Made by a program: the position numbers and the translations under genes
The notes under the pieces: generated by a model
Databases searched by the model: none
Seen by the model: only the letters and a program-made list of their open reading frames with translations
What the model was told of the DNA's origin: nothing
Assembly (NCBI RefSeq): GCF_008000775.2
Contig: NZ_CP042905.2
Location: forward strand, 4,140,001-4,172,000
Direction: 5' to 3'
DNA length: 32,000 bases
Origin: Promethearchaeum syntrophicum
GTDB taxonomy: Archaea; Asgardarchaeota; Lokiarchaeia; Sigyniarchaeales; Promethearchaeaceae
Shown here: piece by piece, positions 969-30,975 of the stretch
Layout of the letters: each line of letters begins with the position of its first letter
How positions within the stretch are numbered: position 1 is the first letter of the stretch

Positions 969-1017
969 ATTGATTATTATGTAGTACTATTGGTAAAACG
1001 ATCTTAAATAATTTTAT

Positions 1018-1635
1018 TTAAAACTCCAGAAATCCAGTGTCACCCAAAATTTCCTCAATTTTTGCCCGTCTTTTGGGTTTTTCACTAACCTTACTTTCCC
1101 CTTCATCGTATGGATTATCTTCGTTTTCTTCATATATGTTTTCGAGAGTGGCATCTTCAATAAGACCAGAATCTAGTTGTTCTTGGAGTCTTTTTCCATT
1201 TTCAACGTATTTGGCTGCAGTCGCTTTCCACATCTCTGCTTGTTCCAAATCTTTTGGGTCTTTATTTTTTTGATATTCTTCAAGAGCTTTTGTGGAATTA
1301 ACATTTGCATTATCAGCTAAAAATGAATAGACTAAGGTTAATTCAGTAAATTGTTTCTTTTCCCAAAGTTTTTCTTCACGAGATGTGAGTCTAGCATATT
1401 CTTGGTCTTTATAATATATATCAATGAAATCTCCAAATGCATCAACGGGTTCTGTGAGGTCATTCTTGGAAACTTTCTGAGATACACCACAATGTCCGCA
1501 AATTACTTCGACATCTTCTTCTTTTGAAGTTACTTTCGCTTTGACTGTCTTGTGTCCGCATTTTGGGCAGGTAAAGATCTTGGGAAGTGATCTTACTCTT
1601 CTATAAACAATTTTTTTTCTTTTGCGTCGACCCAC
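1018..1635 (-). CDS. elf1: Transcription elongation factor Elf1 homologue (zinc ribbon) with a long acidic C-terminal extension
   Basis: GTG start. The basic N-terminus MGRRKRKK is followed by FTCPKCGH...VICGHCG...LTEPVDAFGDFIDIYY. This matches the Elf1 pattern: basic tail, CxxC-x(n)-CxxC, and the (S/T)EP(I/V)D..(S/G)D(W/F)ID motif. About 125 additional residues are rich in E/D/K. Confidence 0.85.
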   Translation of the reverse strand: MGRRKRKKIVYRRVRSLPKIFTCPKCGHKTVKAKVTSKEEDVEVICGHCGVSQKVSKNDLTEPVDAFGDFIDIYYKDQEYARLTSREEKLWEKKQFTELTLVYSFLADNANVNSTKALEEYQKNKDPKDLEQAEMWKATAAKYVENGKRLQEQLDSGLIEDATLENIYEENEDNPYDEGESKVSEKPKRRAKIEEILGDTGFLEF

Positions 1636-1789
1636 GTTAACTCGTATAAAATAAAGAAACCTAATGCAATAAATTTTATGGTCTTATTTTAGAAAGATTT
1701 TTTGGTCATGCTACATTGAATAAATTAAGTTTTTGCAATACATTTTTCGCAAATGAGTGATATTTCGCCATGAATAATAGGAGATCAAT

Positions 1790-2941
1790 ATGACAGAAGA
1801 CCACACAACCTTAGATTTAGAATATGATAGAATGTTATTAGAAGACGTATTTGATTCCCCAAATCTCAGGTACGTATCGTTGTATATGTATATAATTCGG
1901 AAAGATTTATTCCAAGATTTACTGGATGATGATGTCATTGAACAATTTGAAACTATAACATCACTAGATGAACCAACTGTGGAGGATATAACTAGAATAT
2001 GCACAGGAGATTTTATTAAAGCATTATTTCAATATAAAATGATTACCAATCTTCGATCCTATGAAATCTTTCAATCTAAGGGAAATGATTTTAAAATTCG
2101 GTTTGCTAAAGGATTAAATCTAACCCATGATGAATTATCAGAATCCGAAGAGGAAGTTCATATATTTTTCAACGAAGCATATTTAGAAAGAATTTTAAAT
2201 CCTATCATTCCAGAAATGACACAGACTCGAATACATGAATCACTGGAAAGACTTAGAGCGATGATGTGTCCGAAATCATCTATGATTCATGAACTTGTTC
2301 ATAAATATGGGGATTTTTATGTAATTGATGATGATTTCTACTATATTATTGAGGAATTTGGAAATCCCTATCAAGCTTTAAGGATTGAATTAATGATTCG
2401 TGCAATGTCAAGCAAATACAAAGAAATTGAAAGTAATATAAATGAAGTATTAAAGCAATATGATTCTTCAATAGTTAAAGCACCAATAATGAAGAAATTG
2501 AAGCAGGCTAAAGAGAAAGGGAAAGAGGATTATGTTAAATATTTGATCGATAAATCACGTAAAAAAACTCTCCCCCATAAATTTTGGGTTGAATTTCCAG
2601 ATATTGAAATTCCAGATAATTATGTTAAATGGAAAGATTCTTTAAATCAGCTATTTAACCTTAAACTAAAATTTATAGATATTGATCTTAAAATGGATGA
2701 GTTAAGAGCACATTATTCAGGCAAAAACCAAAAAATGACTTATTTGAAATTCATTCAAAAATCTACATATGATGAAGACAATATATCAGAAAGAATTAAG
2801 ACTTTATTAATCGAAGCGCGAAATTCTTTGAAGGAAGTAAGTGAGAATTTAGAGAAATATCCTAAGAAAGAAATGAAATTACTAAATTTAGATATCGAAC
2901 GAATGATAATTGAAAAAGGATTAGATGAGGAAGAAGACTAG
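1790..2941 (+). CDS. Hypothetical protein, operon gene 1 (383 aa, helical, acidic C-terminus)
   Basis: Long ORF in AT-rich DNA. AGGAG sits 6 nt upstream of the ATG. The stop abuts the next gene's start. No motif recognised. Confidence 0.8.
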   Translation: MTEDHTTLDLEYDRMLLEDVFDSPNLRYVSLYMYIIRKDLFQDLLDDDVIEQFETITSLDEPTVEDITRICTGDFIKALFQYKMITNLRSYEIFQSKGNDFKIRFAKGLNLTHDELSESEEEVHIFFNEAYLERILNPIIPEMTQTRIHESLERLRAMMCPKSSMIHELVHKYGDFYVIDDDFYYIIEEFGNPYQALRIELMIRAMSSKYKEIESNINEVLKQYDSSIVKAPIMKKLKQAKEKGKEDYVKYLIDKSRKKTLPHKFWVEFPDIEIPDNYVKWKDSLNQLFNLKLKFIDIDLKMDELRAHYSGKNQKMTYLKFIQKSTYDEDNISERIKTLLIEARNSLKEVSENLEKYPKKEMKLLNLDIERMIIEKGLDEEED

Positions 2942-3916
2942 GTGAAAAATATGGGTGAAATTTGTCCAGCATGTGGAGAAGCAGAACTAACTGAATTAGT
3001 ACCGGGAGTAAAAAGTTGCCCCGCTTGTCGAAAGGTATTTCGTTCGAAGGTTGAAAAGAAAAAAATTCAAAAATCGGAAGGAAAACTTCTTGATGGGGAG
3101 TATTGGATGAAAAATACTACTCTTAATCCAAAATATGAAATTGCCGATAAAGGAATAACGATTTTTAGGGAGGAAAATAAGTTATGGTTTGCAGTTTTAT
3201 TGTGTCATACCCCTGATTTCCCTGATTCAAAATATATTCGATTATCTTGGTGGAAAAAAAGTGTGAATATCCATGCGGGTATGTTTAAAATTGAAGATTT
3301 GGATGAATTAGAAAATGTTTTAATCGCATTGAATCGTATTGAAGAAGATTTCGATGAATATTTTGAAGTAAAGGATAATAAGAAAATTTCATATGAGCCT
3401 ATTCCAGAAAGAAAGGATATTGATGATGAATCTTATGTTTTTAATCTAACTAAAAGAAAATGCCCAAAATGTGGTTGGAAAATGAAAAAAAGTAAAAATC
3501 ATCGCTATTATGAATGTGAAAAATGCGGAGAAATTATCGTATTAGATGATGGGCATCCGATTTATGATATCCCATCAAAATATTTACCAATGTCATATTC
3601 AACTAATTACCCTATCAATTTCTATTTACCCAATTATGGAATTACAGTTAGTAATAAAATGGGGAATTGGAAAGCGATTATCACAATCCATGCAAAAGAA
3701 AACCCCGACAAAAGATGGTTACGATTTTATTGGTGGAGAAGAAATTTCCAACATTATATGACTAGTCAATACTCACTTGGTTCATCCCAAGGATTAAAAT
3801 GGGAAACGCGAAAAGGAGTTATGTCACCCAACATCTATGATAAGAAGTTGATAGCCCCACTAATTAAAGGATTAGAAGAAATGAAGAAAATTTGGTTAAT
3901 GAGTAAAGAGGAATAG
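2942..3916 (+). CDS. Double zinc-ribbon protein with internal two-fold duplication, operon gene 2
   Basis: GTG at 2942, or ATG 9 nt downstream. Ribbon 1 is CPACGEAELTELVPGVKSCPAC and ribbon 2 is CPKCGWKMKKSKNHRYYECEKCG. Each ribbon is followed by a roughly 110-aa domain carrying a WW(K/R)(K/R) motif: YIRLSWWKK and WLRFYWWRR. Confidence 0.8.
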   Translation: MKNMGEICPACGEAELTELVPGVKSCPACRKVFRSKVEKKKIQKSEGKLLDGEYWMKNTTLNPKYEIADKGITIFREENKLWFAVLLCHTPDFPDSKYIRLSWWKKSVNIHAGMFKIEDLDELENVLIALNRIEEDFDEYFEVKDNKKISYEPIPERKDIDDESYVFNLTKRKCPKCGWKMKKSKNHRYYECEKCGEIIVLDDGHPIYDIPSKYLPMSYSTNYPINFYLPNYGITVSNKMGNWKAIITIHAKENPDKRWLRFYWWRRNFQHYMTSQYSLGSSQGLKWETRKGVMSPNIYDKKLIAPLIKGLEEMKKIWLMSKEE

Positions 3917-3918
3917 AG

Positions 3919-5064
3919 ATGGAAAACGAATTAGAAAGCGATTTATGGTCAGAATTGATAGAAAAATTTGGAAATTCTATAAAAAAATCCTTAGAAGTAA
4001 TCAAGGAAAGAGATATTGAGAATATTCCAGGAGCAAAAGAACAATTAATAAGACGCTTTGAAGAATTAAATCGATATCTTCCACGAAATAATGGAGAAAT
4101 TATGATTAAAAGTATAGATGAATCGATTTCGAACTCATTTTTTCCTCAAACCAACAAATTAGCTGTAGCATTTGAAAAAATTTTAAAAACTCTCGAACAA
4201 CAGCATGAAAATGCATTTATAATTAATGAATTAATTAATGGGTTTGTTGCCAGTCAAAGTAAATCGTTTGGATCCTTTAAAGAAGGGCCTATTATAGATC
4301 GTATTATTGAAGCCTTTAAAAAATCAAAGAATTTTCGTATATCTGATTATTCTTTTTATGCAATGTTTGGAAACCCAAATAAACCCAGAAAAAATCTCCA
4401 AACTAATTTGAAATCAATAGCAGAATTTCTTGGATTAGTAAAAGAAGAAAAAATATATGCACGTGATCTTGCTAGAAGTGAGGAAAAAGCAGTTAATTTC
4501 TATACATTCCCTCCGGAAATCTTAGAATTATTAGAAGGAACCTATATTATTCACACTGAAAAAGGCGAGACAATTATTAATGATGATTTTGATAAGAACG
4601 TCTTTACCAGCTTATTCTTGGCAAGATATTCAGTTGGGAGAAAAAACCTAGATGCCTACAAAATAAATGGAATCTGTGCAATTTTTGCTCTTATTCTCAT
4701 ATTAAGCTTTATGCCTAAAGTTAAATTAGCGGAAAATAACCCTATTTTACGTGATCGTAATTATGATTCCCAAAATATGAGTGTGATTCCGAAATCTTGG
4801 ATGATGAAAGAAGTTTTAGTAGAGTTACTTCCTAGCACTATCGAAATAGTAGCATATAGAATGGGAGCATCTCTATGGTATAATAAAATCGAAAAATCTG
4901 ATGCTCAAAAACGATTGCATCTTCAAACTCGATTTTTAATTAAGGATGTTAATAAATGGGTACTAGGAAACTTGTGTAGAGTAGAAATCCCAATATTTGT
5001 TGAAATAAGTAATATTTTCCAGGAAATTACTGTAGATGGAACAGATACGGATTATAATAATTAA
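3919..5064 (+). CDS. Hypothetical protein, operon gene 3 (381 aa)
   Basis: GAGGA lies upstream of the ATG, with a 2-nt gap from gene 2. One segment, VFTSLFLARYSVGRKNLDAYKINGICAIFALILIL, resembles a segment of gene 4. Confidence 0.8.
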   Translation: MENELESDLWSELIEKFGNSIKKSLEVIKERDIENIPGAKEQLIRRFEELNRYLPRNNGEIMIKSIDESISNSFFPQTNKLAVAFEKILKTLEQQHENAFIINELINGFVASQSKSFGSFKEGPIIDRIIEAFKKSKNFRISDYSFYAMFGNPNKPRKNLQTNLKSIAEFLGLVKEEKIYARDLARSEEKAVNFYTFPPEILELLEGTYIIHTEKGETIINDDFDKNVFTSLFLARYSVGRKNLDAYKINGICAIFALILILSFMPKVKLAENNPILRDRNYDSQNMSVIPKSWMMKEVLVELLPSTIEIVAYRMGASLWYNKIEKSDAQKRLHLQTRFLIKDVNKWVLGNLCRVEIPIFVEISNIFQEITVDGTDTDYNN

Positions 5065-5084
5065 CACATATACGGTGAAAAATC

Positions 5085-6332
5085 ATGGCACGTGAAAGAT
5101 GGGAAGAAATTGTAGCATATTATAAAACTTACATTTCGATACTTCAACCTTTATTGAAAGAAACCAGAAGACTTTTCTTAGATTTGACTTCAGAAGAATT
5201 ACTGGATTTTTCAGCTTTACAAGAAAAATTGGAAGAGGAAACTAAAAGAAAAATCAATACAGTAAAAGCCATTGCAGAATTTAATGCTTTTTTCAGGAAA
5301 GAGATTTTTAAACATATTCTTAACTATATCGGAGAAGTTCAGAAAGATTTTGAAGTCCTTGATATAAAGGATAATATAATAGATTTCCTAGATGAATCTA
5401 TTCATGCATTTGATGGTTTATTAGCCTTAATTCAAGAAGATTTTTCAAAACAAGAAGGATCCCCCTTGAATTTTCTGTTCGACTTGTTAAATGAAATATT
5501 ACTTCCAAATGGAGATAATCTGGAAAGTATTTATGAACAGTTATTAGAAAAATCTGAAGAGTGGTATGAAGCTCAAAGGCATATTCTTAGCCCAACTACA
5601 TTTTATAGGGAAAAAATTGGAGAAATGACAATTCCTGGATTAAGTCCAAAAACATATCAGATTATAAATGGGATTACCTCACTTTTTAACCTCGATCCAA
5701 ATTATTTGGATATGGATGAAAATCCTAATTATGTTGTACCTGCAATTATGGTCTCTGACATTTTTGAACCTTACATAGATAATATTGCAAATGCTGAGGA
5801 AGAGTCAATTAAAAGAATTTGCAGTAGATTGGAATTACGAATCACTGATGGAATTTTTATATCTCCCTCAGAGGAATTATTACAATTAGCAGAACCGCAT
5901 AACTTTTTCAGTAGACAAAATGATTCAGATGGAAAAACTCGTTGGATTCCTCAATTCAGTAATGAAACATTTGTATTATTATACTTAGCAAAGGTATCCA
6001 TGCGAAGAGGGTTCCTTTCAAAAGAACTAATTAATTGGATATCGATGAATTTCTCATTTATTATTTATAACACAGTTTTACACGCAAATCTATCCGATGA
6101 GAATATTTTTTATAATTTATTCTTAGATCTTAAAACTGAAGAAAAAATCATTCCGTATTTAATGAAAATCTTGTGTTTTGAGAATTATCTTAGATTAGAC
6201 AGAACTAAAATACGTGATTCTCCGGTATACAGGAAAGAACTATTCAATTTTCTAGGATCAAAAATTGAAATAATTGATAAAATAACATATCTACTAGTAG
6301 AGAAATATGAAAAATTTATGAATCCTAAATAA
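5085..6332 (+). CDS. Hypothetical protein, operon gene 4 (415 aa), possible distant paralogue of gene 3
   Basis: GGTGA lies upstream of the ATG. The segment TFVLLYLAKVSMRRGFLSKELINWISMNFSFIIYN aligns by eye with the gene 3 segment (shared pattern F..L.LA[RK].S..R..L....IN.I...F..I). Confidence 0.8.
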   Translation: MARERWEEIVAYYKTYISILQPLLKETRRLFLDLTSEELLDFSALQEKLEEETKRKINTVKAIAEFNAFFRKEIFKHILNYIGEVQKDFEVLDIKDNIIDFLDESIHAFDGLLALIQEDFSKQEGSPLNFLFDLLNEILLPNGDNLESIYEQLLEKSEEWYEAQRHILSPTTFYREKIGEMTIPGLSPKTYQIINGITSLFNLDPNYLDMDENPNYVVPAIMVSDIFEPYIDNIANAEEESIKRICSRLELRITDGIFISPSEELLQLAEPHNFFSRQNDSDGKTRWIPQFSNETFVLLYLAKVSMRRGFLSKELINWISMNFSFIIYNTVLHANLSDENIFYNLFLDLKTEEKIIPYLMKILCFENYLRLDRTKIRDSPVYRKELFNFLGSKIEIIDKITYLLVEKYEKFMNPK

Positions 6333-6352
6333 AAAAAAAAAAGTGAAAAATA

Positions 6353-7423
6353 ATGACATTTACAATTGAAGAAATGCAACAGCGTTTCAGAAAATTTGGG
6401 ACAATTTATTCAGGTGATGATATCAGAGAAGATGTTGAAGATATTATCGGATTGGAAGATAAAAAAGAGATGATGGCTGATTTTTTTCTATCATTAAAAA
6501 AATATGGCGACATAGCTTCTAACTTACAAGCTGCAAAAATCGCACCTAATTTTACTATGTTACTATATGGCCCTCCTGGAACAGGCAAAACAGCATTAAC
6601 TAGAGCAATGGCAAAGAAATACGAGATTCCAATGGGACTAGTTGATGCAGATAGGTTAGTATCTCCATTATTGGGAGATACTGTGAAAAATATTCGAGGA
6701 GTATTCGATTTAGCAGCAGAATTTTCAAAGGAAAATGGCGTATTTCTTCTTTTTTTTGATGAAATTGATGCCATAACAGGAGAACGTGCAAATGCACATG
6801 AAGTAGGTGAAATTAAAAGAGCAGTCATATCTTTCTTACAAATAATTGATAAAATTTCTTATGATGCTATCCCTCTAGCAATCTTCGGAGCAACGAATCA
6901 TGAAAAACAATTAGATTCAGCCATATGGAGAAGATTTACGTATCATTTAAAATTTCAATTTCCAAATTTTATTGTTCGTAAAAATATCCTAGAATCTTTC
7001 ATTCTCCGAGTTGAAAAAGCAACAATTGGAATAGATCCACGCTTAACGGAATCAATTGAATCAGAATATAAATTTTTATTCCAGAGATATTCAAAATTGA
7101 AAGAAAAATTAGGAAGAGAATTGAACGACGAAGAATATTATGGAATTTTTGATGAATTGAAACAAAAGGGTAAAGAAGGAATTCTATATCATACTTTAGG
7201 ATATACAGGGGCAGATTTAATGCGGGCAATGAGGGTAGCTTTGTTCAAAGCATTACAAAAGAATATGTTGTTGTATGATGATTATTTTCGATCCTTAGAA
7301 TTAGTCGGAGGAACTGAAACACACGTTTTACAAGGATTACGACTAGCTAAAGAGAATTCAGCAAACCAAGAGGAAAATAAACCTCCTACAAGTGATTTAA
7401 GTGATTTTGATATAGATATTTAA
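6353..7423 (+). CDS. Classic-clade AAA ATPase with a very short N-terminal region and an acidic C-terminal tail, operon gene 5
   Basis: Walker A is GPPGTGKT (about 6569-6592) and Walker B is LLFFDEID (D-E at 6758-6763). Sensor-1/SRH reads GATNHEKQLDSAIWRRF. The lid motif is GYTGADLMRAMRVAL. No MIT, CDC48-N or other N-domain is seen. Confidence 0.9.
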   Translation: MTFTIEEMQQRFRKFGTIYSGDDIREDVEDIIGLEDKKEMMADFFLSLKKYGDIASNLQAAKIAPNFTMLLYGPPGTGKTALTRAMAKKYEIPMGLVDADRLVSPLLGDTVKNIRGVFDLAAEFSKENGVFLLFFDEIDAITGERANAHEVGEIKRAVISFLQIIDKISYDAIPLAIFGATNHEKQLDSAIWRRFTYHLKFQFPNFIVRKNILESFILRVEKATIGIDPRLTESIESEYKFLFQRYSKLKEKLGRELNDEEYYGIFDELKQKGKEGILYHTLGYTGADLMRAMRVALFKALQKNMLLYDDYFRSLELVGGTETHVLQGLRLAKENSANQEENKPPTSDLSDFDIDI

Positions 7424-7566
7424 ACGAATCGAGGGGAATTATAATTTTAGAAAGAAATTACACTGATATTAAAATAATAAATCGGGATTCTGTTCAATTT
7501 TTTTCGGAAATCATCGATTCCATTAAAGAAAATCAGAGTAATTTAGATGAACCTGCAGATTCTTAT

Positions 7567-8265
7567 ATGGAATTACTTTCTGAACAGATTAATAATAATA
7601 TCTCCGATATGGCAATAATTTTTAAGAAAATTCAGAAATTTCTAACTGAAGATTATCAAAACGAACTGTTTTTTGACATGCAAAATCTTTCAAAATATTC
7701 AATTGTAAAAGAAATAGGTATTAATCTTCTTAAAAATCGAATTCTCGAAAAACCAATAGAAAGCGATAATATTGTATTTGCAATATATAAAAAATATTGG
7801 GACGCATTGCTACAAAGAATGATTAAATCTTCTAAATTCAATTCTACAATAGAAAAACTAAAAAATTTTCATTATGAGGCTATTAATGATAAAATTAATG
7901 AAGAACTAAAGAAAATCCCAATAGAGATAGATCCAAGTGTAAGGGATGACTACAAAAAAGCATATTATAGTAATCCTTTAACTTTTAGTGAATATCTAAA
8001 TTTTGAACAGAAAAAGCATAAAGAAAGCCAATATTCTCAAGAACAACCAGATTCTTTTAATTCCTCAGAGAAATTACGGAAAGAATTTGTGATGGCCGTT
8101 GAAAAAAAAAAAATTGACAAGAAAAAGGAAGAACAGGAAAAGCAATTTGATAATTATAATGCGTATTTCAACATGGATGATCGCCAATTACAACGCGCTA
8201 AAAGAAATGGAAAAATGAGAAGAAAATATACTAAAAAAACGCGAAAGGAGAAATACAAAAAATGA
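7567..8265 (+). CDS. Hypothetical helical protein with a strongly basic K/R-rich C-terminal tail, operon gene 6. The N-terminus may extend upstream to about 7438.
   Basis: The C-terminus is RAKRNGKMRRKYTKKTRKEKYKK. The stop overlaps the next start (ATGA at 8262-8265). The reading frame is open upstream to 7411, with GAGGGG (7431-7436) preceding ATT/ATA codons. Confidence 0.75.
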   Translation: MELLSEQINNNISDMAIIFKKIQKFLTEDYQNELFFDMQNLSKYSIVKEIGINLLKNRILEKPIESDNIVFAIYKKYWDALLQRMIKSSKFNSTIEKLKNFHYEAINDKINEELKKIPIEIDPSVRDDYKKAYYSNPLTFSEYLNFEQKKHKESQYSQEQPDSFNSSEKLRKEFVMAVEKKKIDKKKEEQEKQFDNYNAYFNMDDRQLQRAKRNGKMRRKYTKKTRKEKYKK

Positions 8266-9893
8266 TTAAACTTAATATTGATTCACATGAAATTCCTATT
8301 AATCAAAAACTGATGTTTCTCCAAGGAAATTATGATATTAATACAATTGAGAATCTTCCTTATTCTTGGATTGACTGGAATGAAAATCTAGAGATTTTAT
8401 TTAGAGACTCAGATTTGTTGATTGAATTTTTTTCACGTTTAAATTCCATTATCACTCATCAAAATTCAAAAAAAATAGGTTTAATATCTGATATCTGGAG
8501 AAATCTATATTCTACATTAAAAGAAAATAAAAATAATATTGCAAAATATGAAAAATTCAATGAGCTCAGTAAAAATTTGCGAAGTAAATCAAATTTGCTT
8601 CAAGATATTGAACGTTTAGAGTTAATGGAAAAAAATCTTGACCAAATGGTAAATCAAAGCATCTTTCAAAGTAAAAAAGATTTATTGCTTAAATTAGAAA
8701 AATTACTCGTAACACAAACTACAGAATTTAATATTCAATCTGATGAATTTTTTGTTAATAAACAAAGAGTTGATGAAAATCTTGCAATAATAACAAAATT
8801 TGACAACAATTTATCACGATTAAAGCAAGAACAAAGAATATTATTTAAGGAAACAAACGAACTCACAAAACAAATGGATTCTTTGGAGCCTTTAATGAAT
8901 GTTTATCAAGAAAAGCTTGAAGTGATTGATTCCTATAAAAATGGTAAAGATTATAATAGAATTAAAAAGAAATTCGAAGATATTGTAAAGGAACATGAAG
9001 ATTGCAAAAACGATAGAGTCCTCAAAATTAAAAAAAGCAAAGATATTACTCAAAAAATGCGGAATTTGCGAGTTCAGATTAAAAAAAATAACAATGATTT
9101 AAGAAAATTAGATTTGTCAAAGTTTAATGAAATTAAAAAAAACTATGAAGATTTAAAAACCGATCTCGAAAATACAAAAACTCAGATTACCTCAGTTCGA
9201 TTAGAAATTGATTCAATGTTAAATAACAGTGAAAAAAATGTCTCTCAAAATGATTTAAATCAAGATGATATGTTTTATTCAAACCCCACCGAAATTAAAG
9301 AACAATTGAAAAAGAAACGAAATCTAATCAGCCAAATCAATGATTTCTTTGAGAATACATATGATACCACCGATTTAGAGATAATTAAAAAGAAAATTGA
9401 TGCTGATAGAAGAAATTTATTGGATGAACTTACTTCCAATTCAGAAAAGCTTCAACTTTCATCTGAGAAATCTCACTATTATGAAGATTTATTAAAGAGA
9501 ATTAAAGAAATTCAATCATGGATGAATAAATTTTTGAGCAAAATTGATATGAAAATATCATTCTCTCTAGCATTTGATAAAGAAAACCTGAAATTAACAA
9601 ATAAAATTATGAAAAAAAATCAATATATCAACTTTAACACGGATTTAAAAAGAATTGAAAAAGCGTTTTTTTATTTTAGTGCGATAATTAGCAGTTACTT
9701 AGGAGAAAACTATAGGTTTATTCCCATAAGGATTAATAAATTGCCAAAATTTATGATAACGAAACAAAATTTCATAAAAAATATCAAAATGCTTGATGAT
9801 ATGTGTGAGGAATTACCTGAAGATATTAATATTATATTTTTTTTAGAAGAAAACAAGTTCGAAATTCCGTTAGAAATTATTAAAATTGACTAA
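8262..9893 (+). CDS. Long coiled-coil protein with SMC/Rad50/RecF-like end regions lacking a P-loop and Walker B (candidate degenerate SMC-like protein), operon gene 7
   Basis: AGGAG lies upstream. The N-terminus MIKLNIDSHEIPINQKLMFLQGNYDINTIENLPYS follows the SMC-head beta-strand pattern but has no GxxGxGKS. The central roughly 350 aa are K/E/L/N-rich heptad-like sequence. The C-terminus LKRIEKAFFYFSAIISSYLGENYRFIPIRINKL...INIIFFLEE mimics the signature/Walker-B/D-loop layout without the catalytic residues. Confidence 0.8.
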   Translation: MIKLNIDSHEIPINQKLMFLQGNYDINTIENLPYSWIDWNENLEILFRDSDLLIEFFSRLNSIITHQNSKKIGLISDIWRNLYSTLKENKNNIAKYEKFNELSKNLRSKSNLLQDIERLELMEKNLDQMVNQSIFQSKKDLLLKLEKLLVTQTTEFNIQSDEFFVNKQRVDENLAIITKFDNNLSRLKQEQRILFKETNELTKQMDSLEPLMNVYQEKLEVIDSYKNGKDYNRIKKKFEDIVKEHEDCKNDRVLKIKKSKDITQKMRNLRVQIKKNNNDLRKLDLSKFNEIKKNYEDLKTDLENTKTQITSVRLEIDSMLNNSEKNVSQNDLNQDDMFYSNPTEIKEQLKKKRNLISQINDFFENTYDTTDLEIIKKKIDADRRNLLDELTSNSEKLQLSSEKSHYYEDLLKRIKEIQSWMNKFLSKIDMKISFSLAFDKENLKLTNKIMKKNQYINFNTDLKRIEKAFFYFSAIISSYLGENYRFIPIRINKLPKFMITKQNFIKNIKMLDDMCEELPEDINIIFFLEENKFEIPLEIIKID

Positions 9894-9908
9894 AGAAGGT
9901 GGAAAACT

Positions 9909-10649
9909 TTGGCGAATGAAGTACTTTTACAGCAAATAAGTAGATTAATAATCCAGAATAAGAAAAAAATAGTTAACGAAAGAGATATAATAAATTTGTG
10001 TTCAAATGATGAAGAATATAAAGAAATACTCCCCATTTTAGTTCAGAATTTCAAACTTATAGGATTTTCCTTAATTCGAACAACTTTTCAAGGAAAGAGA
10101 TATTTCGTTTTAACAACTCCGGGAAAAGACGATATTATTTCTCCAAGTATGTACGGGACATTAGGATTGATTATTGCATTACATAATGAAGTCGGAAGAG
10201 AAATCGAATTAATTAAAATTAAACAGATTTTTAAAGAATTATGGGATGAAATTGAAGAATTAATCACGCATAACTACCTTCAAATTTCGAAAAATAAAGG
10301 ATCAGAGACACTAACTATAACTCCAATAGGAAAAGCGGCTTTTAAAAATATTTTGAAGGAGTTAAATCTTCCAAAAATTCTGACCTTCCAAGGTCTTGAT
10401 GAAACAATAATATCAACAGATGAACCATTAACAGAAACCGAAAAGAAAATAACAACCAAAAAGAAAACTACAAAGAAAAAGACTACAAAAAAGAAGACCA
10501 CTAAAAAAAAAACTACTAAGAAAAAGACTACTAAGAAGAAAACTACTAAGAAAAAGACTACTAAGAAGAAAACTACAAAGAAAAAGACCACTAAAAAGAA
10601 AACTACTAAGAAAAAGACTACTAAAAAGAAAACAACTAAGAAAAAATAA
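9909..10649 (+). CDS. Tandem winged-helix (kite/ScpB/MAGE-like pattern) protein with a C-terminal 13 x TTKKK tail, operon gene 8
   Basis: TTG start with GGTGG 7 nt upstream. Segments EYKEILPILVQNFKLIGFSLIRTTFQGKRYFVLT and YGTLGLIIALHNEVGREIELIKIKQIF...LITHNYLQISKNKGSETLTITPIGKAAF fit a two-WH pattern by eye. The tail is described below. Confidence 0.8.
   Translation: MANEVLLQQISRLIIQNKKKIVNERDIINLCSNDEEYKEILPILVQNFKLIGFSLIRTTFQGKRYFVLTTPGKDDIISPSMYGTLGLIIALHNEVGREIELIKIKQIFKELWDEIEELITHNYLQISKNKGSETLTITPIGKAAFKNILKELNLPKILTFQGLDETIISTDEPLTETEKKITTKKKTTKKKTTKKKTTKKKTTKKKTTKKKTTKKKTTKKKTTKKKTTKKKTTKKKTTKKKTTKKK
10452..10646 (+). repeat. In-frame 15-bp tandem repeat (13 units) encoding (TTKKK)13
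   Basis: Codon-by-codon reading gives 13 Thr-Thr-Lys-Lys-Lys units. Synonymous variation is present (aca/act/acc; aaa/aag). A 30-bp higher-order unit, actactaagaaaaagactactaagaagaaa, recurs. Confidence 0.95.
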
Positions 10650-10654
10650 AGCAA

Positions 10655-11821
10655 TTACAATTTATGTACGCCATCAGATGGAGTAACTTCGTAAGTAATT
10701 GCTGTTAATCCGAATTTTTCTTGGTATCCTTTTAATTTTGATATATATTCAGGAATTGCCTTCTTTTCTATCAATGTTAGAGTACACCCTCCAAAACCCG
10801 CACCGATCATCCTTGAACCATAACATCCTTCAATATTTTGGGCTGTTTCAACTAACCAATCCAATTCTGCACACGAAACTTCATAATATAATTTTAAACT
10901 TTCATGGGAGTCGTTCATTAATTGCCCGAATTTTTTTAAATCTCCATTTTTTAAGAATTTTTCAGCTTCAATAACTCGGTCATTTTCAGATATCACATGG
11001 AAAGCCCTTTTTTTTTGTTCGGGAGTGAAAAATTCACGAGATTTTTCATAATCCCCCATATTATAGTCTCGTAAAGATTTTCCGGGTTTAATTTCATTTA
11101 AAACTTTAACAGCTTCTTCACATTCAAAAACTCGTTCATTATATTTGGAAACGCTTAATTTGTGACTTACATTGGAATTTGTAATGATAAATCCTACAGA
11201 CTTTAATTTTAAAGGAATGTATCGATGATCGAGGGATCTACAATCTAAGAAAAATGCATTTCCAGCTTTTCCAAATTTTGCGGTAAATTGATCCATAATA
11301 CCACATCTTACCCCTACAACCTCTTGTTCCGCTTGTTGACAATATTTAGCCAGATCTTTATCTTTGATTTTCAATTTATATAATTGTTGAATCCCATAAG
11401 CTACAGCAACTTCTAATGCAGCAGATGAAGATAATCCTGCACCTTGTGGAATTGATCCCGTGAAAGAAACTCTTACACCACCAAATTTATGTCCGTGTTT
11501 TTGTAATATTTTAACAACTCCAATTGGATAATTTGCCCAATCATCACTACCGCTACTTTTCATTAAATATGCATACAAAGAAACGATTTTTTTTTCCTTA
11601 TCTAATGAGTAAACTGAAATTACCTCAGAATCTTGTATCCGCGAAATAGCTAAATCTATTCCAAGAGAAATAGCCATGGGTAACACAAATCCATCATTGT
11701 AGTCAGTGTGTTCCCCGATCAAATTAACTCGACCAGGAGAGTGGATAATTAACTCTGGAACCTCACCATATATCTCTTTATGTTTATCTATCAAAAGATT
11801 CTTATTTTTCATTTCCAACAA
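10655..11821 (-). CDS. galK: Galactokinase (GHMP kinase family)
   Basis: PGRVNLIGEHTDYNDGFVLP is the galactokinase signature and PQGAGLSSSAA is GHMP motif II. The C-terminal GAGFGGC is also present. Start is TTG at 11821 or ATG at 11812. Confidence 0.9.
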   Translation of the reverse strand: MLEMKNKNLLIDKHKEIYGEVPELIIHSPGRVNLIGEHTDYNDGFVLPMAISLGIDLAISRIQDSEVISVYSLDKEKKIVSLYAYLMKSSGSDDWANYPIGVVKILQKHGHKFGGVRVSFTGSIPQGAGLSSSAALEVAVAYGIQQLYKLKIKDKDLAKYCQQAEQEVVGVRCGIMDQFTAKFGKAGNAFFLDCRSLDHRYIPLKLKSVGFIITNSNVSHKLSVSKYNERVFECEEAVKVLNEIKPGKSLRDYNMGDYEKSREFFTPEQKKRAFHVISENDRVIEAEKFLKNGDLKKFGQLMNDSHESLKLYYEVSCAELDWLVETAQNIEGCYGSRMIGAGFGGCTLTLIEKKAIPEYISKLKGYQEKFGLTAITYEVTPSDGVHKL

Positions 11822-11904: not shown

Positions 11905-12345
11905 TTATCTTAAATCCATTTCAGCACAAAAATTATCAAATAAGCGCTTTATTCTATCGTGAGTTGGACCCCGTCCTTCAACTCCAGACTCAGTAATGAT
12001 GATTTTTCCACCTAAAAGTTTAATTGAACCACCATCATCATGTAATTCAATGCTTTCGTCTGGAAGAATCTTTCTTAATCTTTCCACAAGTTTATCCATC
12101 GGAAAAGGCTCTCCTTCAATTGCGATGGACTCCCATATTCCCCGAATAAAAATTTTCTCAGTTTTTTGCCTTTTCTCATTAATAGCATTAGCAAGGCAAA
12201 TTGATAATGAATTTACTTCAAATCCTACAAGACGACCAGTATAGTAGTGCCCTTTCTCTTTATCAATAACCACTCTAACCATCGAATTGAGGGCTTGTAC
12301 AATTTCTTTATTAAATTCTCGCGCAGCATTGGATGCGATGCTCAT
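11905..12345 (-). CDS. Sm-like (LSm) fold protein with a C-terminal extension
   Basis: VRVVIDKEKGHYYTGRLVGFEVNSLSICLANA...IFIRGIWESIAIE fits the Sm1/Sm2 motif pattern (G..D..hN..L......IRG..I). An extra domain of about 65 aa follows. Confidence 0.5.
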   Translation of the reverse strand: MSIASNAAREFNKEIVQALNSMVRVVIDKEKGHYYTGRLVGFEVNSLSICLANAINEKRQKTEKIFIRGIWESIAIEGEPFPMDKLVERLRKILPDESIELHDDGGSIKLLGGKIIITESGVEGRGPTHDRIKRLFDNFCAEMDLR

Positions 12346-12422: not shown

Positions 12423-14438
12423 ATGAAAGAAAAATCCAAAATCCATGGTAAAAAATTAAATCCAGCAGAAATAAATGATTTGATTTTGGATTATGAAATT
12501 CTTCCTAAAACACATTCACCAATGTATTTGATGCATAAGTATTGGGCTAGAAAACCCGCAAATATCGTTGCTAATTACATTAAACGCTATTGTCCGCAAG
12601 AAGGTATTGTTTTAGACCCCTTCATGGGATCGGGAGTAACAATTTTAGAATCAATTTTTAGTAATCGTTTAGCCATTGGTATTGACGTGAATCCTATGGC
12701 AAATTTTATAACAAAAAATACTGGAATTTACGCCGATATATATAAACTAGAAACCGCATTTCAAATAATTAAAAATGAAGTTGAAAAAAAAAATTCTATA
12801 TTCTCACTTCTCTATGAAATTCAATGTGATTCGTGTAAAAACAGTAAAGCGATAATTACTCACATAATATGGTTAAAAAAGAAAGAAGATTTGAATCATC
12901 AAATAGAAGAGATCAGATATAAGTGTTCAAATTGCGGAGAAATAGTTATAAATAATTCAGATCTTAATTCTAGTTTTATTTCAATGAAAGAATTTATTTT
13001 GAATCAGGAGATAAATGCTTTAACATTTCTTTCTAAAGACGAAATAAAAAATCCGAATGTTTCATTCAAATATACAAATAATCAAGCGTTTATACAATTG
13101 CGACATAATTTACGAAAACAACCAGAACTAACCGAACTATTTACACAACGGAATTATGCTTTTTTGGTTTTTTTAATTCATATAATTAATAAATTATCAG
13201 ATAACTACGAAAATGAGAAAGAACTCTTAAAATTCTGCTTTACTAGCTCATTAGCACAAGCAAGTAAAATGGTTTGGGTCATCAATAAACGTAAGGGAAA
13301 AGCATTAAAAAAAAAACAAGTAGGTTCTTGGACCCACCACTTTTTTTGGGATCCATCAAATTTTTTCGAGGTTAATGCATGGAATTGCTTTAAACATAGA
13401 TATTCTAAATTAAAAAATGGAAAAATCGATTCTAATAAAAGAAATAAGAATTCAAATTCAACTTTTAAATTGGCAGATTCTTTTAGTGATCTTTCAATTA
13501 AAAAGCCTGTTCTCCTATGGAATACATCTTCAACGAAATTGGAACTACCAAATAATACTGTAGATTTTGTTTTTACTGATCCTCCTTACGGAGATTCTAT
13601 CCAATATGGTGAACTTTCAACTTTATGGAATGCCTGGTTAGATGTCGATATGGATCGATATAAAAAAAAAATGGAATTGAATGAAATTATAATCAATACA
13701 CATCAAGGAAAAAATTTGAAATCATACGAATTTAACCTAAAAAAAGTATTCAGCGAAATTTTTAGAGTTTTAAAGCCAGATAAATATATGGTTTTGACTT
13801 TTCATAATACATCTTTCAAAATTCGTAATGCACTGATAAATTCAGTAGTATCTTGTGGTTTTGAATTATGTCAAATATTATTTCAGTTACCTCCACGAGT
13901 TTCTATTAAATCTATGCTACATCATGAAGGTTCTCCTATAGGAGATTATTATATTAGATTCCAAAAACCTCTTCAAAGCCTAGATGATAAGAAAAAAACC
14001 AAATTAAAAACCTTAGACAATGAAGAGATCTATAAGATAATTAAAGATAAAATTAGCGAAATCCTAAAAAAACGGGGAGAACCAACTAATTTCATGTGGA
14101 TTTCAAACTTTCTAGATGAAATGCTATATAAATCTCATATATTTCCAATAGATAATCTTGAATTCTATATTACAAGACTTAAAAACTCCAATTTTTTTCA
14201 TATTAGTAAAGAAGGAAAATGGTGGTTTACACATGATTCAATACCAAAAGATTGTGAAAAACCTTTAACTGCGCAAATTGAAGATTTCTTAGAAATTTAT
14301 CTTAAGGATCACTGGTTAGATGTTAAATTATCTGATAGGACAAAAAAGCAAAAAATATTTAATGAAATTTATCGAAAATTTCGCGGTGTATATAGTCCAG
14401 ATAAATTTGAAACTAATCAAATAATCGAAAAATCTTAA
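12423..14438 (+). CDS. DNA (N6-adenine/N4-cytosine type) methyltransferase with motif I before motif IV and an inserted Zn-ribbon (COG1743/DUF1156-like architecture)
   Basis: The N-terminus has HKYWARKP, then DPFMGSGVT (motif I, about 12615-12641). A Zn-ribbon CDSC...CSNCGE follows, then TDPPYG (motif IV, about 13575-13592). Confidence 0.85.
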   Translation: MKEKSKIHGKKLNPAEINDLILDYEILPKTHSPMYLMHKYWARKPANIVANYIKRYCPQEGIVLDPFMGSGVTILESIFSNRLAIGIDVNPMANFITKNTGIYADIYKLETAFQIIKNEVEKKNSIFSLLYEIQCDSCKNSKAIITHIIWLKKKEDLNHQIEEIRYKCSNCGEIVINNSDLNSSFISMKEFILNQEINALTFLSKDEIKNPNVSFKYTNNQAFIQLRHNLRKQPELTELFTQRNYAFLVFLIHIINKLSDNYENEKELLKFCFTSSLAQASKMVWVINKRKGKALKKKQVGSWTHHFFWDPSNFFEVNAWNCFKHRYSKLKNGKIDSNKRNKNSNSTFKLADSFSDLSIKKPVLLWNTSSTKLELPNNTVDFVFTDPPYGDSIQYGELSTLWNAWLDVDMDRYKKKMELNEIIINTHQGKNLKSYEFNLKKVFSEIFRVLKPDKYMVLTFHNTSFKIRNALINSVVSCGFELCQILFQLPPRVSIKSMLHHEGSPIGDYYIRFQKPLQSLDDKKKTKLKTLDNEEIYKIIKDKISEILKKRGEPTNFMWISNFLDEMLYKSHIFPIDNLEFYITRLKNSNFFHISKEGKWWFTHDSIPKDCEKPLTAQIEDFLEIYLKDHWLDVKLSDRTKKQKIFNEIYRKFRGVYSPDKFETNQIIEKS

Positions 14439-19918: not shown

Positions 19919-21703
19919 TTACATACATTCACTTGTTCGTCTCTTCTTGCGCAATGAAAATATTACTCTTACACATACACCTAATAAACTTGCAATTGAC
20001 AAACCATATAATATCATTAATTCATAACCAGGAATATTATTCGACTCAGATGGGGAAGGATTTGTATATATCTCAAAATAGTCCCCATAAATATTTATTA
20101 AAGGATCAGAAACATCTGTGATTTTTATCTGATATTGAGTAGAATTATCGAGACCTGAAGGGATAGTCCAAGAAAAATCACCATCATTAAATGTGCTTGA
20201 AGCAATTTCCAATTCAAGTGCATCCCCTTTATATAGTTCAATTTTTACATCAGTAATACTACCTGTTGAGATCCAAGCTAGAGAATGTGTTGTCCCTATC
20301 TCCCACGAACTAAAACTATCAGGAGAAGTAACAGTGATTGAATCAGTAACGAACCCGAAAATCTCAAAATAATCGCTATAATCATTTATTAAAGAATTAG
20401 ACACATCGGTGATTTTTATCTGATATTGAGTAGAATTATCGAGACCTGAAGGGATAGTCCAAGAAAAATCACCATCATTAGGAGTGCTCGGAATAATTTC
20501 CAATTCAAATACACCACCTTTAAACAATTCTATTTTTACATCTGTAATACTACCTGTTGAGGTCCAAGCTAGAGAATGTGTTGTCCCTATCTCCCACGAA
20601 CTAAAACTATCAGGAGAAGTAACAATGATTGAATCAGTAACGAAAATCTCAAAATAATCGCTATAATCATTTATTAAAGAATTAGACACATCGGTGATTT
20701 TTATCTGATATTGCGTAGAATTATCAAGACCAGAGGGAACAGTCCAAGAAAAATCACCATCATTAGGAGTGCTCGGAATAATTTCCAATTCAAATACACC
20801 ACTTTTAAACAATTCTATTTTTACATCTGTAATACTACATGTTGAGGTCCAAGCTAGAGAATGTGTTGTCCCTATCTCCCACGAATTGGATGTAGAAGGA
20901 TTAATGACATTAATGGTTTCTACATCCCAAATTTCAAAATATGCATCATTAATTCCCCATGTATCTGCATAGTTACTATTAGATATATTTACTTGGTATT
21001 GATCACCAAAAAATGGAATATCAATTGGAATCCACCATGGGTAAGACCCATTATTTTGTACATTGGTGGCAATTTGACTCAAAAAAGTACCATCGTGATA
21101 AAGTGCAATATCTACATTGGCAAAATTACCTCCACATGTCCAATTAATATAATGAGATGTTTCTACTTTCCATGAGCTGGAACTTGTAGGTTCATCAACT
21201 GTAATAAAATCATCCTCCCAACTATCAGTAAATTCAATTTCACTAGCTGTGAACTCATAATGGTTTATTGCTACAACATACCATTTATCCGAGTAGAGAG
21301 GATAGAAAACACATGAAGCAGATAGTTCTTCGTCCGATAAAAGTTCTGTATAGGGAAAACTTCCACGGGTGCGTGAATTTCTATCCAATCCAATATTATA
21401 CAAATATTCTGAATCATTCATCATGTACCACGTGAGCCCAGGACCAAAATTTGTAACAATGTTCAATTCATAATATTCATGTTCGTTATGATCCCAACCC
21501 GATGCAAATAACCCTCCATACGGAGTTGTCTCGAGGATAGAAATTACGCCAGAACCAGCATCAGGCGAAATATTTTCAAGAGAAACATTTTCAATAGGAG
21601 CATTATCAACTAATAGTGCTTGAAAGCCTGTAATGATATTTATTATTAGAATCCCGATAATTATCATTTTAAGATTTTTTTTAGATTTTGATTTATTAAT
21701 CAT
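19919..21703 (-). CDS. Secreted/surface protein with a signal/TM N-terminus, a unique domain, four Kre9/KNH-like beta-sandwich-type repeats (three near-identical) and a C-terminal NIPGY-TM-basic anchor
   Basis: The N-terminus is KKNLKMIIIGILIINIITGF. Repeats read SSWEIGTTHSLAWTSTGSITDVKIELFKGGVFELEIIPSTPNDGDFSWTIPSGLDNSTQYQIKITDVSN. The C-terminus is NIPGYELMILYGLSIASLLGVCVRVIFSLRKKRR. Confidence 0.85.
   Translation of the reverse strand: MINKSKSKKNLKMIIIGILIINIITGFQALLVDNAPIENVSLENISPDAGSGVISILETTPYGGLFASGWDHNEHEYYELNIVTNFGPGLTWYMMNDSEYLYNIGLDRNSRTRGSFPYTELLSDEELSASCVFYPLYSDKWYVVAINHYEFTASEIEFTDSWEDDFITVDEPTSSSSWKVETSHYINWTCGGNFANVDIALYHDGTFLSQIATNVQNNGSYPWWIPIDIPFFGDQYQVNISNSNYADTWGINDAYFEIWDVETINVINPSTSNSWEIGTTHSLAWTSTCSITDVKIELFKSGVFELEIIPSTPNDGDFSWTVPSGLDNSTQYQIKITDVSNSLINDYSDYFEIFVTDSIIVTSPDSFSSWEIGTTHSLAWTSTGSITDVKIELFKGGVFELEIIPSTPNDGDFSWTIPSGLDNSTQYQIKITDVSNSLINDYSDYFEIFGFVTDSITVTSPDSFSSWEIGTTHSLAWISTGSITDVKIELYKGDALELEIASSTFNDGDFSWTIPSGLDNSTQYQIKITDVSDPLINIYGDYFEIYTNPSPSESNNIPGYELMILYGLSIASLLGVCVRVIFSLRKKRRTSECM
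20066..20905. repeat. Three tandem coding repeats (units of 291 and 285 bp) within the surface-protein gene
   Basis: The string gatttttatctgatattg(a/c)gtagaattatc recurs at 20120, 20411 and 20696. Long identical stretches lie between units. Confidence 0.9.
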
Positions 21704-21766: not shown

Positions 21767-22993
21767 TCAAGTTTTCTTCAAATCTTCTTCAATCTTCTCA
21801 AGAATTAAATCAAAAACTTCTTCCAGACCATCCACATTCCCTCCTCCTTGAGCAAAATTTGGTTTTCCTCCACCTTTTCCACCAATTTTTGAGGCAAACA
21901 ATTTTAGGAGTGTATTCATCTCCACTTGATTTTCATGTCCTTTCGAAGAACGAGCAAAGATTAGATTAACTTTATTATCAACAATATTTGCAGTAAGGAT
22001 TATACAGATTTCATCTTCTATTAAGTCGGTTACGATTTTTCGTATAATTTTAAAATTTCCATCATTAAAAATAAGTTTAACAACTGGAATTCCTTCGATT
22101 CTTTGAGATTGGTTTATTTCATTATTGAATTTTTCCTTTAATTCGTTAAATTGCAATTCTTCAATGTGTTTTCTTTGAATTTTATTATCTTCAAATAATT
22201 TTTCTACGGTATCCTTCAAATCTTTCTTCTTAACAGCCAGAAATTCAGCGATTTCTGAGATCATTTTGTTTTTCCACTGGTAATCACTTAAAGCTCGTTC
22301 TCCACAAATGAAATCAACACGAAATCCATTTTTTATCTTAATCCATTTTAATACTTTTATAGGTCCTAATTCAACTGAACTTTTTAAATGAGTTCCACCA
22401 CATGGCGAGTAATCAAATTTACCTACTTCTACTATTCGTATGTTTTCATTTACTTTTGGCTTTTTACGCAATGGAAATTTATCTAATTCATCATTACCTA
22501 CCCAATGAATATCTATGTGTCGATTTTCTGAAATGATTTTATTTGCTAAATTTTCGACTTTATGAACATCTTCCCACTTTAATTTCGAAAGACCCACATC
22601 TAAAGTTAGAGAATGTTCACCTAAATGAACGGAAAAGGTTTCTCCTCCCAATTCTTTGAGAAAACTTTCTGATAGTATATGTTGAGCGGTATGATTCTGC
22701 ATGAATTTATATCTACGTGCCCAATCTATCTTACCCTTTATTTTTTTTCCGATTTCCAAGGTTTTTTCTGTAATATGGATAATTTCACCATCTTTTATTT
22801 GGGTATCAAGAACTGGAATTTTATCTAATTTACCGATATCACCTAATTGCCCTCCACCTTCCGGATAAAAGCATGTTTTTTCTAAAATTATCCCATATTT
22901 TCCTTTTAACTCTAATACTTCTAGAACTTTTGAAGTGAATTCTTTTTGATAAGCATTTTTATAATATAATTTTTCGGTCAGCATACTATTCAC
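21767..22993 (-). CDS. alaX: Alanyl-tRNA editing protein AlaX-L (AlaRS editing domain plus DHHA1-like C-terminal domain)
   Basis: TEKLYYKNAY...CFYPEGGGQLGDIG is the AlaX N-terminus. Zinc motifs are HTAQHILS and SPCGGTH. The C-terminus carries GGKGGGKPNFAQGGG. Start is GTG at 22993 (4-nt overlap with the upstream ABC gene) or ATG at 22984. Confidence 0.88.
   Translation of the reverse strand: MNSMLTEKLYYKNAYQKEFTSKVLEVLELKGKYGIILEKTCFYPEGGGQLGDIGKLDKIPVLDTQIKDGEIIHITEKTLEIGKKIKGKIDWARRYKFMQNHTAQHILSESFLKELGGETFSVHLGEHSLTLDVGLSKLKWEDVHKVENLANKIISENRHIDIHWVGNDELDKFPLRKKPKVNENIRIVEVGKFDYSPCGGTHLKSSVELGPIKVLKWIKIKNGFRVDFICGERALSDYQWKNKMISEIAEFLAVKKKDLKDTVEKLFEDNKIQRKHIEELQFNELKEKFNNEINQSQRIEGIPVVKLIFNDGNFKIIRKIVTDLIEDEICIILTANIVDNKVNLIFARSSKGHENQVEMNTLLKLFASKIGGKGGGKPNFAQGGGNVDGLEEVFDLILEKIEEDLKKT
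21832..22011. repeat. Direct repeat copy B (inside intact alaX), matching 19554-19733
   Basis: See copy A. Confidence 0.85.
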
Positions 22994-24789: not shown

Positions 24790-24790
24790 T

Positions 24791-29058: not shown

Positions 29059-29697
29059 TTATAACACTGTGGTTAAAAAACTAATCCAAGTTCCTATGAG
29101 CAAAAACGCAATAAAATATTGAAAAAAATGATTTATTTTCACAAAACCATTTTTCAATGCTAATTTTGAATACTTTTTAATTGTTTCTTCTGGTAAAAAA
29201 ATCCCGGTATTCTTAAAAAATTCATGAAATCGGATCACAATACGTTTATTCCATTTAATGTATTGAACGATGAAATAAATAAAACCCACAGTTTCAGCTA
29301 TTATTAGAAATAGTCCTATAGCATAGATTGAGAATTTTTCAAGAATACCTGCAACGAAAAAAACAAGAAAAACTATTATCCCTTCTGTTATCAAAATTGG
29401 ATTAAATTTGTTGTAGTTATACTTATCTTTCCAGTCTATTGCACTATCACCGGCCATTTGTACAGCGATATAAGGAATTCCATGTTCGTAACTATTTGCA
29501 TGAATGCCGATTTTTAAAACATCATCCTGAATATCTAAATAGTGATCCAAATCATCATGTTCTATTGTTTCTTCGAAATCAGCAATTTTTGCTTTAGTAG
29601 GTTCTTTTTCACGAGTTTCATTTAATTTCACATCATAGAAAATTTTTAAGAGTTTATTTTCAGCTTCTTCTTTCGATAGCATATCAATCAAATCCAT
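29059..29697 (-). CDS. Tandem-array membrane protein paralogue, type C (divergent)
   Basis: It shares the family layout: EEAENKLLKIFYDVKL...ANSYEHGIPYIAV...2 TM...KWNKRIVIRFHEFFKNTGIFLPEE...C-terminal TM. Confidence 0.8.
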   Translation of the reverse strand: MDLIDMLSKEEAENKLLKIFYDVKLNETREKEPTKAKIADFEETIEHDDLDHYLDIQDDVLKIGIHANSYEHGIPYIAVQMAGDSAIDWKDKYNYNKFNPILITEGIIVFLVFFVAGILEKFSIYAIGLFLIIAETVGFIYFIVQYIKWNKRIVIRFHEFFKNTGIFLPEETIKKYSKLALKNGFVKINHFFQYFIAFLLIGTWISFLTTVL

Positions 29698-29717
29698 TCA
29701 TTTTTGATCTATTCTCA

Positions 29718-30326
29718 CTAAGAAAAAATAATTCCCCAACTTATGAAGAGAATGAAAACAGTAAAACCATGTATAGCATTAATAATTACAAAAGCATCAA
29801 GGAAAAGTTTTTTTGCATAATATTTTATTCTTTCTTCCGCTAAAAATATACCAGTGTTTTTAAATAACTCCCGAAATCGTAATAAAACACGTTTTTTCCA
29901 ATTTATTTTTAGAATTATAAAATAAATTAGAATTCCTGTTCCAATTATATCTATAATAATTGCTCCTAAAAGGGAATAAGATTTAACAAGCATTGCAAGG
30001 ATAAAAGTAATAAATGGGAGGATTGTATGGAATAATATATAAAGTTTCAAATATTTGGAAAAAATATCCTCATTCCAGTGTAGAGCACTATCATGAGCCA
30101 TATTTACTGCAAAATATGGAATTCCATGTTCATAATTATTTGCCCACATGGCTATTACTAGCTCGTCATCCTTTACTTTATAAAAATGCTCTTCAGGATC
30201 CGGAATATTTGTTTCTTCAAACATATCAATATTTGCATGGGAAGGGCGTTTTTTCAAATATCGATCCAATTTTACATCATAATAGATTTTTAGCAGTTTT
30301 TCTTCTGCTTCTTCTTTAGATATCAT
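29718..30326 (-). CDS. Tandem-array membrane protein paralogue, type A (copy 1)
   Basis: MISKEEAEEKLLKIYYDVKLDRYLKKRPSHANIDMFEET...HFYKVKDDELVIAMWANNYEHGIPYFAV...NWKKRVLLRFRELFKNTGI. Confidence 0.8.
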   Translation of the reverse strand: MISKEEAEEKLLKIYYDVKLDRYLKKRPSHANIDMFEETNIPDPEEHFYKVKDDELVIAMWANNYEHGIPYFAVNMAHDSALHWNEDIFSKYLKLYILFHTILPFITFILAMLVKSYSLLGAIIIDIIGTGILIYFIILKINWKKRVLLRFRELFKNTGIFLAEERIKYYAKKLFLDAFVIINAIHGFTVFILFISWGIIFS

Positions 30327-30328
30327 CT

Positions 30329-30943: not shown

Positions 30944-30975
30944 GTAATCAGCTCGTTTGATTTTTATCTATATTT

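Follow-up and report, generated by a model that had tools for sequence, protein, structure and literature searches.

Results

An eight-gene operon of a single Asgard order

The locus described here lies in a 32,000-nucleotide stretch of the Promethearchaeum syntrophicum genome (contig NZ_CP042905.2, positions 4,140,001 to 4,172,000), hereafter referred to as the window, and consists of eight plus-strand open reading frames (ORFs), g1 to g8, which span window positions 1790-10649 (Table 1) and bring together a classic-clade AAA+ ATPase (g5), four further core subunits (g1-g4), and a module built around an SMC-like protein devoid of the SMC catalytic motifs (g6-g8). The host, which has a 4.32-Mb single-contig genome, belongs to the Asgard order Promethearchaeales (Promethearchaeota/Lokiarchaeia), and its nearest relatives include Promethearchaeum sp. 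CSMAG_2396, of the same genus, and Candidatus Lokiarchaeum ossiferum, of the same family. Asgard archaea are the closest archaeal relatives of eukaryotes, and the SMC family comprises chromosome-organising machines. The junctions between the eight genes measure 0, 2, 20, 20, 143, -4, and 15 nucleotides, exactly as reported in an earlier description made from the DNA letters and their translations (the sequence-only reading), and purine-rich Shine-Dalgarno-like motifs, which that reading had noted before most genes, are present 5' of six of the eight.

The same reading had presented the cluster as an orphan operon and a candidate undescribed system, and had proposed that its gene neighborhood be compared across archaeal, above all Asgard, genomes. 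The comparison shows that the eight-gene set is syntenic; because the cluster is conserved across an order, the orphan label is wrong, and the locus is better described as an order-wide, vertically kept Asgard operon. A g3 profile search of the GTDB genomes returned 115 loci, all of them Asgard, from Promethearchaeota together with metagenome-assembled genomes carrying Thor-, Hod-, or Hermodarchaeota labels and a single contig that had been misbinned. Per-gene counts, here and in Table 1, refer to 80 Asgard loci from GTDB genomes, in which the g1-g5 core is kept in 72-80 of the 80. The order of g1-g5 is retained at 30-90% identity and is followed by g6 and g8, with a g7 homologue occupying the same ~1.6-kb slot, and genes for an Elf1-like and an Lsm-like protein flank the cluster in most loci. 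Among the 400 Asgard genomes searched, g3 was found in 12/13 and 119/135 genomes of two families belonging to a single order and in none of the ~250 others. The cluster is inherited vertically and is specific to one Lokiarchaeia order. A mobile or viral element was rejected on the strength of the conserved synteny; no g3 homologue was found in the viral contigs searched, and the cluster has no viral relatives and, as the sequence-only reading had it, no nuclease, integrase, or capsid signature.

Table 1. Genes of the cluster, the repeat within g8, and the conserved flanking genes (positions are those of the window)
Feature	Position	Strand	Basis
Elf1-like zinc-ribbon transcription elongation factor, conserved left flank	1018..1635	-	Pfam Zn_ribbon_Elf1 7e-18; same position in 64/80 Asgard loci
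g1, helical protein without known domain, core subunit	1790..2941	+	72/80 loci; weakly homologous to g1' in the paralogous copy
g2, internally duplicated, two zinc ribbons and W-rich motifs, core subunit	2942..3916	+	Pfam DZR 2e-4; 78/80 loci
g3, helical with winged-helix domain (residues ~115-230), g4 paralogue, core subunit	3919..5064	+	
g4, helical g3 paralogue, core subunit	5085..6332	+	alignment; hhalign; 80/80 loci
g5, classic-clade AAA+ ATPase	6353..7423	+	Pfam AAA 2e-25; motifs invariant in alignment
g6, helical, basic K/R-rich C-terminal tail, SMC-like module partner	7567..8265	+	translation; 53/80 loci
g7, SMC-like, N- plus C-terminal head-like domain, ~130-residue coiled-coil arm, without Walker A, signature, or Walker B	8262..9893	+	
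g8, KITE-like winged-helix protein, core ~165 residues, (TTKKK)13 tail	9909..10649	+	structure neighbors; 63/80 loci
15-bp tandem repeat encoding the g8 TTKKK tail	10443..10646	+	TRF 13.6 copies, 78% match
Lsm-like protein, conserved right flank	11905..12345	-	Pfam Lsm_C 7e-8; 58/80 loci

A catalytically dead SMC-like protein and its putative partners

The AlphaFold (AF2) model of g7, a protein of 543 residues, is a coiled coil with head-like ends whose top Foldseek matches are Rad50, MukB, JetC, LmuB, Smc5/6, and SMC heads (E=4e-9). Its N and C termini superpose on both halves of the Rad50 and Smc5/6 heads (VIA), and the arm between them forms a helical hairpin, that is, a short antiparallel coiled coil. 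All three ATPase motifs (Walker A, signature, and Walker B) are missing from each of the 26 g7 homologues, which bears out the earlier description of a protein whose ends mimic an SMC/Rad50 head without its catalytic residues.

KITE proteins are tandem winged-helix subunits that sit on the kleisin of SMC complexes, and structural comparison suggests that g8 may be a KITE-like protein of this kind. The neighbors of its Atlas model are ScpB (TM 0.51/0.54) and Nse1 (TM 0.54), and its language-model features lead to MAGE (Nse3) and MksE; it has no ScpB Pfam match, and a profile search against PDB sequences returned nothing specific. These structure neighbors lend support to the kite-like character proposed for g8 from sequence. 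The (TTKKK)13 tail was recovered as well, but the 13-copy form is unique to this genome and gives way to short KKK tails in relatives. The third member of the module, g6, carries the expected basic tail; its profile matched designed coiled coils only among PDB sequences, and a homologue from another locus gave no model and no usable match in the Atlas search.

Core subunits

Among the core subunits, g1 has no Pfam, PHROG, or PDB-profile match and gave no model and no usable match in the Atlas search. The two zinc ribbons of g2 (CPAC..CPAC and CPKC..CEKC) are each accompanied by a W-rich motif, and all eight cysteines (C8, C11, C26, C29, C174, C177, C192, and C195) are invariant in an alignment of 20 homologues, in agreement with the duplicated double zinc-ribbon protein first proposed; against PDB sequences the g2 profile matched ribosomal zinc ribbons only, nothing specific. 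The two large helical proteins suspected of common descent are indeed distant paralogues, g3 and g4, both of which contain a winged helix (hhalign P=96.4%, E=1e-9). For g3, VIA recognized a generic winged helix only and Foldseek gave no significant match to the model. A weak PADLOC match of g3 to JetD (E=0.0065) was the sole pointer to a JetD-like identity for g3/g4, which was rejected. Together, the zinc ribbons and basic tails suggest nucleic acid binding, as had been put forward from the sequence.

The AAA+ ATPase

The only enzyme among the eight products is g5, as first recognized, with a Walker A motif (GPPGTGKT), a Walker B motif (FLLFFDEID), a second region of homology (LDSAIWRRF) bearing the RR arginine fingers, and a lid (GYSGSDIERG), all intact and invariant across the orthologue alignment. 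Its first pore loop (SPLLGD) has no aromatic residue, and the majority of orthologues end in a region with a common [GS]PPEI motif at the C terminus. The orthologues are ~52-55% identical across the order, and the best 120 g5 homologues in the protein database are all Asgard. The top NCBIfam matches are to IteA, CdvC, PAN, and CDC48 (CdvC, 1.6e-25), in PADLOC g5 matches IetA (1.7e-55), and there is also a match to TRIP13 (9e-18); the IteA match reaches 174.6 bits, far below the family cut-off of 510 bits.

AAA+ ATPases of the Vps4/CdvC and TRIP13/PCH2 types remodel structural assemblies such as ESCRT-III and HORMA proteins, and the likeness of g5 to CdvC/Vps4 raises the question of whether the operon encodes an ESCRT-analogous machine that acts not on DNA but on coiled-coil and winged-helix assemblies at membranes or the cytoskeleton. 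Asgard ESCRT, too, is assembled from winged-helix proteins, zinc ribbons, and coiled coils (PMC10936438). However, a Pfam scan found no MIT domain in g5, there are no ESCRT-III genes at the locus, and the g7 model resembles an SMC head bearing a coiled coil and not ESCRT-III, so that such a machine appears improbable. An ESCRT locus proper was rejected because of the position of the host's own Vps4 gene and three ESCRT-III genes, which are located outside the cluster.

Variants of the SMC-like slot

The protein encoded next to the core differs between genomes, and the arrangement in the window, with its catalytically dead SMC-like protein, is the main variant (variant A). Variant B is a paralogous copy found in some genomes of family f1 (G013 and G001; loci L022/L023), with the order g2' g1' g3' g4' g5', and its slot holds an active Rad50/SbcC-like SMC of 1057-1071 residues (GKNGSGKS, SSGQKQ, and AIDE; Pfam AAA_23/SMC_N), 3' of which lie genes for a 322-residue protein and an Nse4_C kleisin; a further Asgard SMC complex, novel in type, may be encoded here. 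In variant C, carried by a few genomes of family f3 (G015, G196, and G266) and amounting to 4/154 genomes of the order, g1-g5 precede the genes for an active SMC-like protein (644-672 residues; GRTAAGKS, VSGGE, and FLIGDE) and a 156-residue protein. Variant D (G006) encodes g5, a 265-residue protein, a dead SMC-like protein of 678 residues, and a g8 homologue (hhalign P=97%). When the g6, g7, and g8 profiles were aligned by hhalign with the SMC-slot proteins of the other variants, no homology was detectable except with the 678- and 157-residue proteins of G006. The AAA+ core adjoins the SMC-like slot in every variant; B and C have a catalytically active slot protein, A and D a dead one. Compared across genomes, the system is modular.

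This constancy bears on the notion that g5 serves general protein quality control and is encoded in one operon with an SMC-like complex without acting on that complex. Such a role would suit a relative of PAN and CDC48, classic-clade AAA+ proteins that are general unfoldases, and no interaction was predicted in the one AlphaFold complex (g7 with g3, which gave no verdict), but the AAA+ stands beside the SMC-like module in every variant, even where the module has been swapped, making a bystander role very unlikely.

The variants also bear on the sequence-only proposal that the AAA+ replaces, or acts on, a dead SMC-like scaffold. Because the AAA+ is kept beside active SMCs, substitution for a lost SMC ATPase is unlikely to be the sole reason for its presence, and the first half of the proposal finds little favor; the second, that it acts on the SMC-like protein, may hold. 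The SMC ATPase would be dispensable in this lineage, probably because the AAA+ already supplies that energy. It is conceivable, although we consider it doubtful, that an SMC-like, DNA-organising complex which had lost its SMC ATPase came to draw its energy from an unfoldase-type AAA+. Since this AAA+ module can also stand beside active SMCs, such complexes would be modular, AAA+-powered SMC machines unlike any SMC family described.

Genomic setting

The genes surrounding the cluster are housekeeping in nature and include, besides those for the Elf1- and Lsm-like proteins, a galactokinase, an N6-adenine methylase, a rhomboid, and an M50 peptidase gene. The galactokinase gene (10655-11821, minus strand) lies between g8 and the Lsm gene and occurs there only in relatives within Promethearchaeum/Lokiarchaeum. 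Adjoining the cluster at 12423-14438 (plus strand) is a gene for a 671-residue N6/N4 DNA methyltransferase (Pfam N6_N4_Mtase, 2e-16), possibly part of a restriction-modification system. A 2020 transcriptome run contains a 41.5-kb contig identical to window positions 1000-10538, which indicates that the organism was present in that run and says nothing on expression or a single transcript.

Further along, the minus strand encodes a Kre9/KNH Ig-like domain protein (19919-21703; Pfam, 3e-35), whose gene contains a 291-bp tandem repeat (20070-20885, 2.8 copies, 92% identity), and an AlaX-like protein with DHHA1, tRNA_SAD, and partial class II alanyl-tRNA synthetase domains (21767-22993), likely a trans-editing enzyme. 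Two neighboring ABC exporter genes (22990-26569, minus strand; ABC_membrane and ABC_tran) probably specify a heterodimeric transporter, and four minus-strand ORFs of ~200 residues each at 29059-31581 have no Pfam matches. Elsewhere, the genome encodes two canonical SMC proteins, each near a ScpB kite (291-297 kb and 3.319-3.327 Mb), and a Rad50-like protein at 4.298 Mb.

Discussion

Our analyses point to an operon that encodes a multi-subunit SMC-like (SMC–KITE) complex peculiar to one Asgard order, probably acting on DNA and including an AAA+-driven step, an interpretation that we regard as evenly balanced between being right and wrong. In such a complex, g7 would serve as an SMC-like scaffold, g8 as a KITE-like subunit, and g6 as a helical, basic-tailed partner, with g1-g5 as the conserved core, and DNA would be bound via the winged-helix, zinc-ribbon, and basic-tail elements. 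The ATP-driven step would fall to g5, a remodeler of the unfoldase type whose task would be to load, unload, or reshape either the SMC-like/KITE assembly or the substrate of that assembly. The ATPase of g7 would have been lost in this lineage, and the AAA+ may let the dead form persist.

Several points weigh against this interpretation. No kleisin was identified among g1-g8 of the main variant, where its role might be filled by g3 or g6, and neither g1 nor g6 has a recognizable fold. The KITE assignment of g8 depends on TM-scores of ~0.5. An AlphaFold complex of g7 with g3 scored 0.03 against a mark of 0.32, a run made without controls that gives no verdict. Finally, action on DNA is deduced entirely from domain types (winged helices, zinc ribbons, and basic tails), and the joint working of the proteins entirely from their conserved co-location.

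The same parts could also be read as a defense system against plasmids or viruses resembling Wadjet or Lamassu, in which an SMC-like DNA sensor and a KITE-like partner would be combined with an IetA-like anti-phage AAA+. This would fit the shared SMC-like plus KITE architecture, the variable SMC slot with its paralogous copy in some genomes, the anti-phage IetA/IteA proteins as best NCBIfam and PADLOC matches of g5, and the weak PADLOC matches of g7 to JetC and of g3 to JetD. On the other hand, Pfam and PADLOC scans revealed no nuclease or effector among g1-g8, neither the topoisomerase-VI-like JetD nor LmuA, the IetS-type serine protease expected of an Iet system was not found in the cluster, and the IteA score falls well short of its cut-off. 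Order-wide vertical inheritance at a fixed locus among housekeeping genes is, moreover, atypical of defense islands, and a defensive function seems rather unlikely.

The SMC–KITE interpretation describes an order-specific, vertically kept system in which a constant AAA+ core would be joined to SMC-like and KITE-like subunits, and in which the SMC ATPase is dead in most lineages, though the same slot can hold active SMCs. Because a dead or an active SMC can occupy the slot beside a constant AAA+, an external motor may power or remodel the SMC-like protein; such an architecture is, to our knowledge, undescribed for any SMC family. If this interpretation is correct, how SMC-like complexes work without their own ATPase becomes testable, and a new SMC-type complex is added to the Asgard repertoire.

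Of the published work found, the nearest is an account of canonical Asgard SMC complexes, in which every complex has an operon of its own for SMC, kleisin, and kite; it does not mention an AAA+ module (10.1101/2024.01.07.573240); no description of an AAA+/SMC-like cluster was found in that account, in PMC10936438, or in a limited literature search. With SMC–ScpA–ScpB and with Smc5/6 (Nse1/Nse3 KITEs, Nse4 kleisin), the system shares an SMC-like N- plus C-terminal head, in g7, and a probable KITE-like subunit, in g8, and the likeness to Smc5/6 extends to an Nse4_C-type kleisin only in the paralogous variant B. It differs from them in the dead ATPase and short arm of g7, in the lack of an identified kleisin in the main variant, and in the addition of five conserved core subunits, one of them a classic-clade AAA+; two canonical SMC-ScpB complexes are retained elsewhere in the same genome. 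Wadjet (JetABCD) and Lamassu (LmuABC) likewise combine SMC-like with KITE/kleisin-type partners, sometimes with degenerate parts, whereas the cluster described here has extra AAA+, winged-helix, and zinc-ribbon subunits and is inherited vertically across an archaeal order. The archaeal Rad50–Mre11–HerA–NurA operon also encodes an SMC-family coiled coil beside a separate ATP-driven motor, but the motor here is a classic-clade AAA+ and not HerA (FtsK/HerA family), the SMC-like protein is dead, and no Mre11, NurA, or HerA was found in the cluster. Although g5 belongs to the same clade as Vps4/CdvC, TRIP13/PCH2, and IetA, it has no MIT domain, and its partners are SMC-like and winged-helix proteins instead of ESCRT-III, HORMA, or IetS. 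None of ScpAB, MukBEF, Smc5/6, Wadjet, Lamassu, and Rad50–Mre11–HerA–NurA has a conserved AAA+/winged-helix/zinc-ribbon core. The system resembles an SMC–KITE complex, yet its main variant fails the defining feature of that class, the SMC head ATPase.

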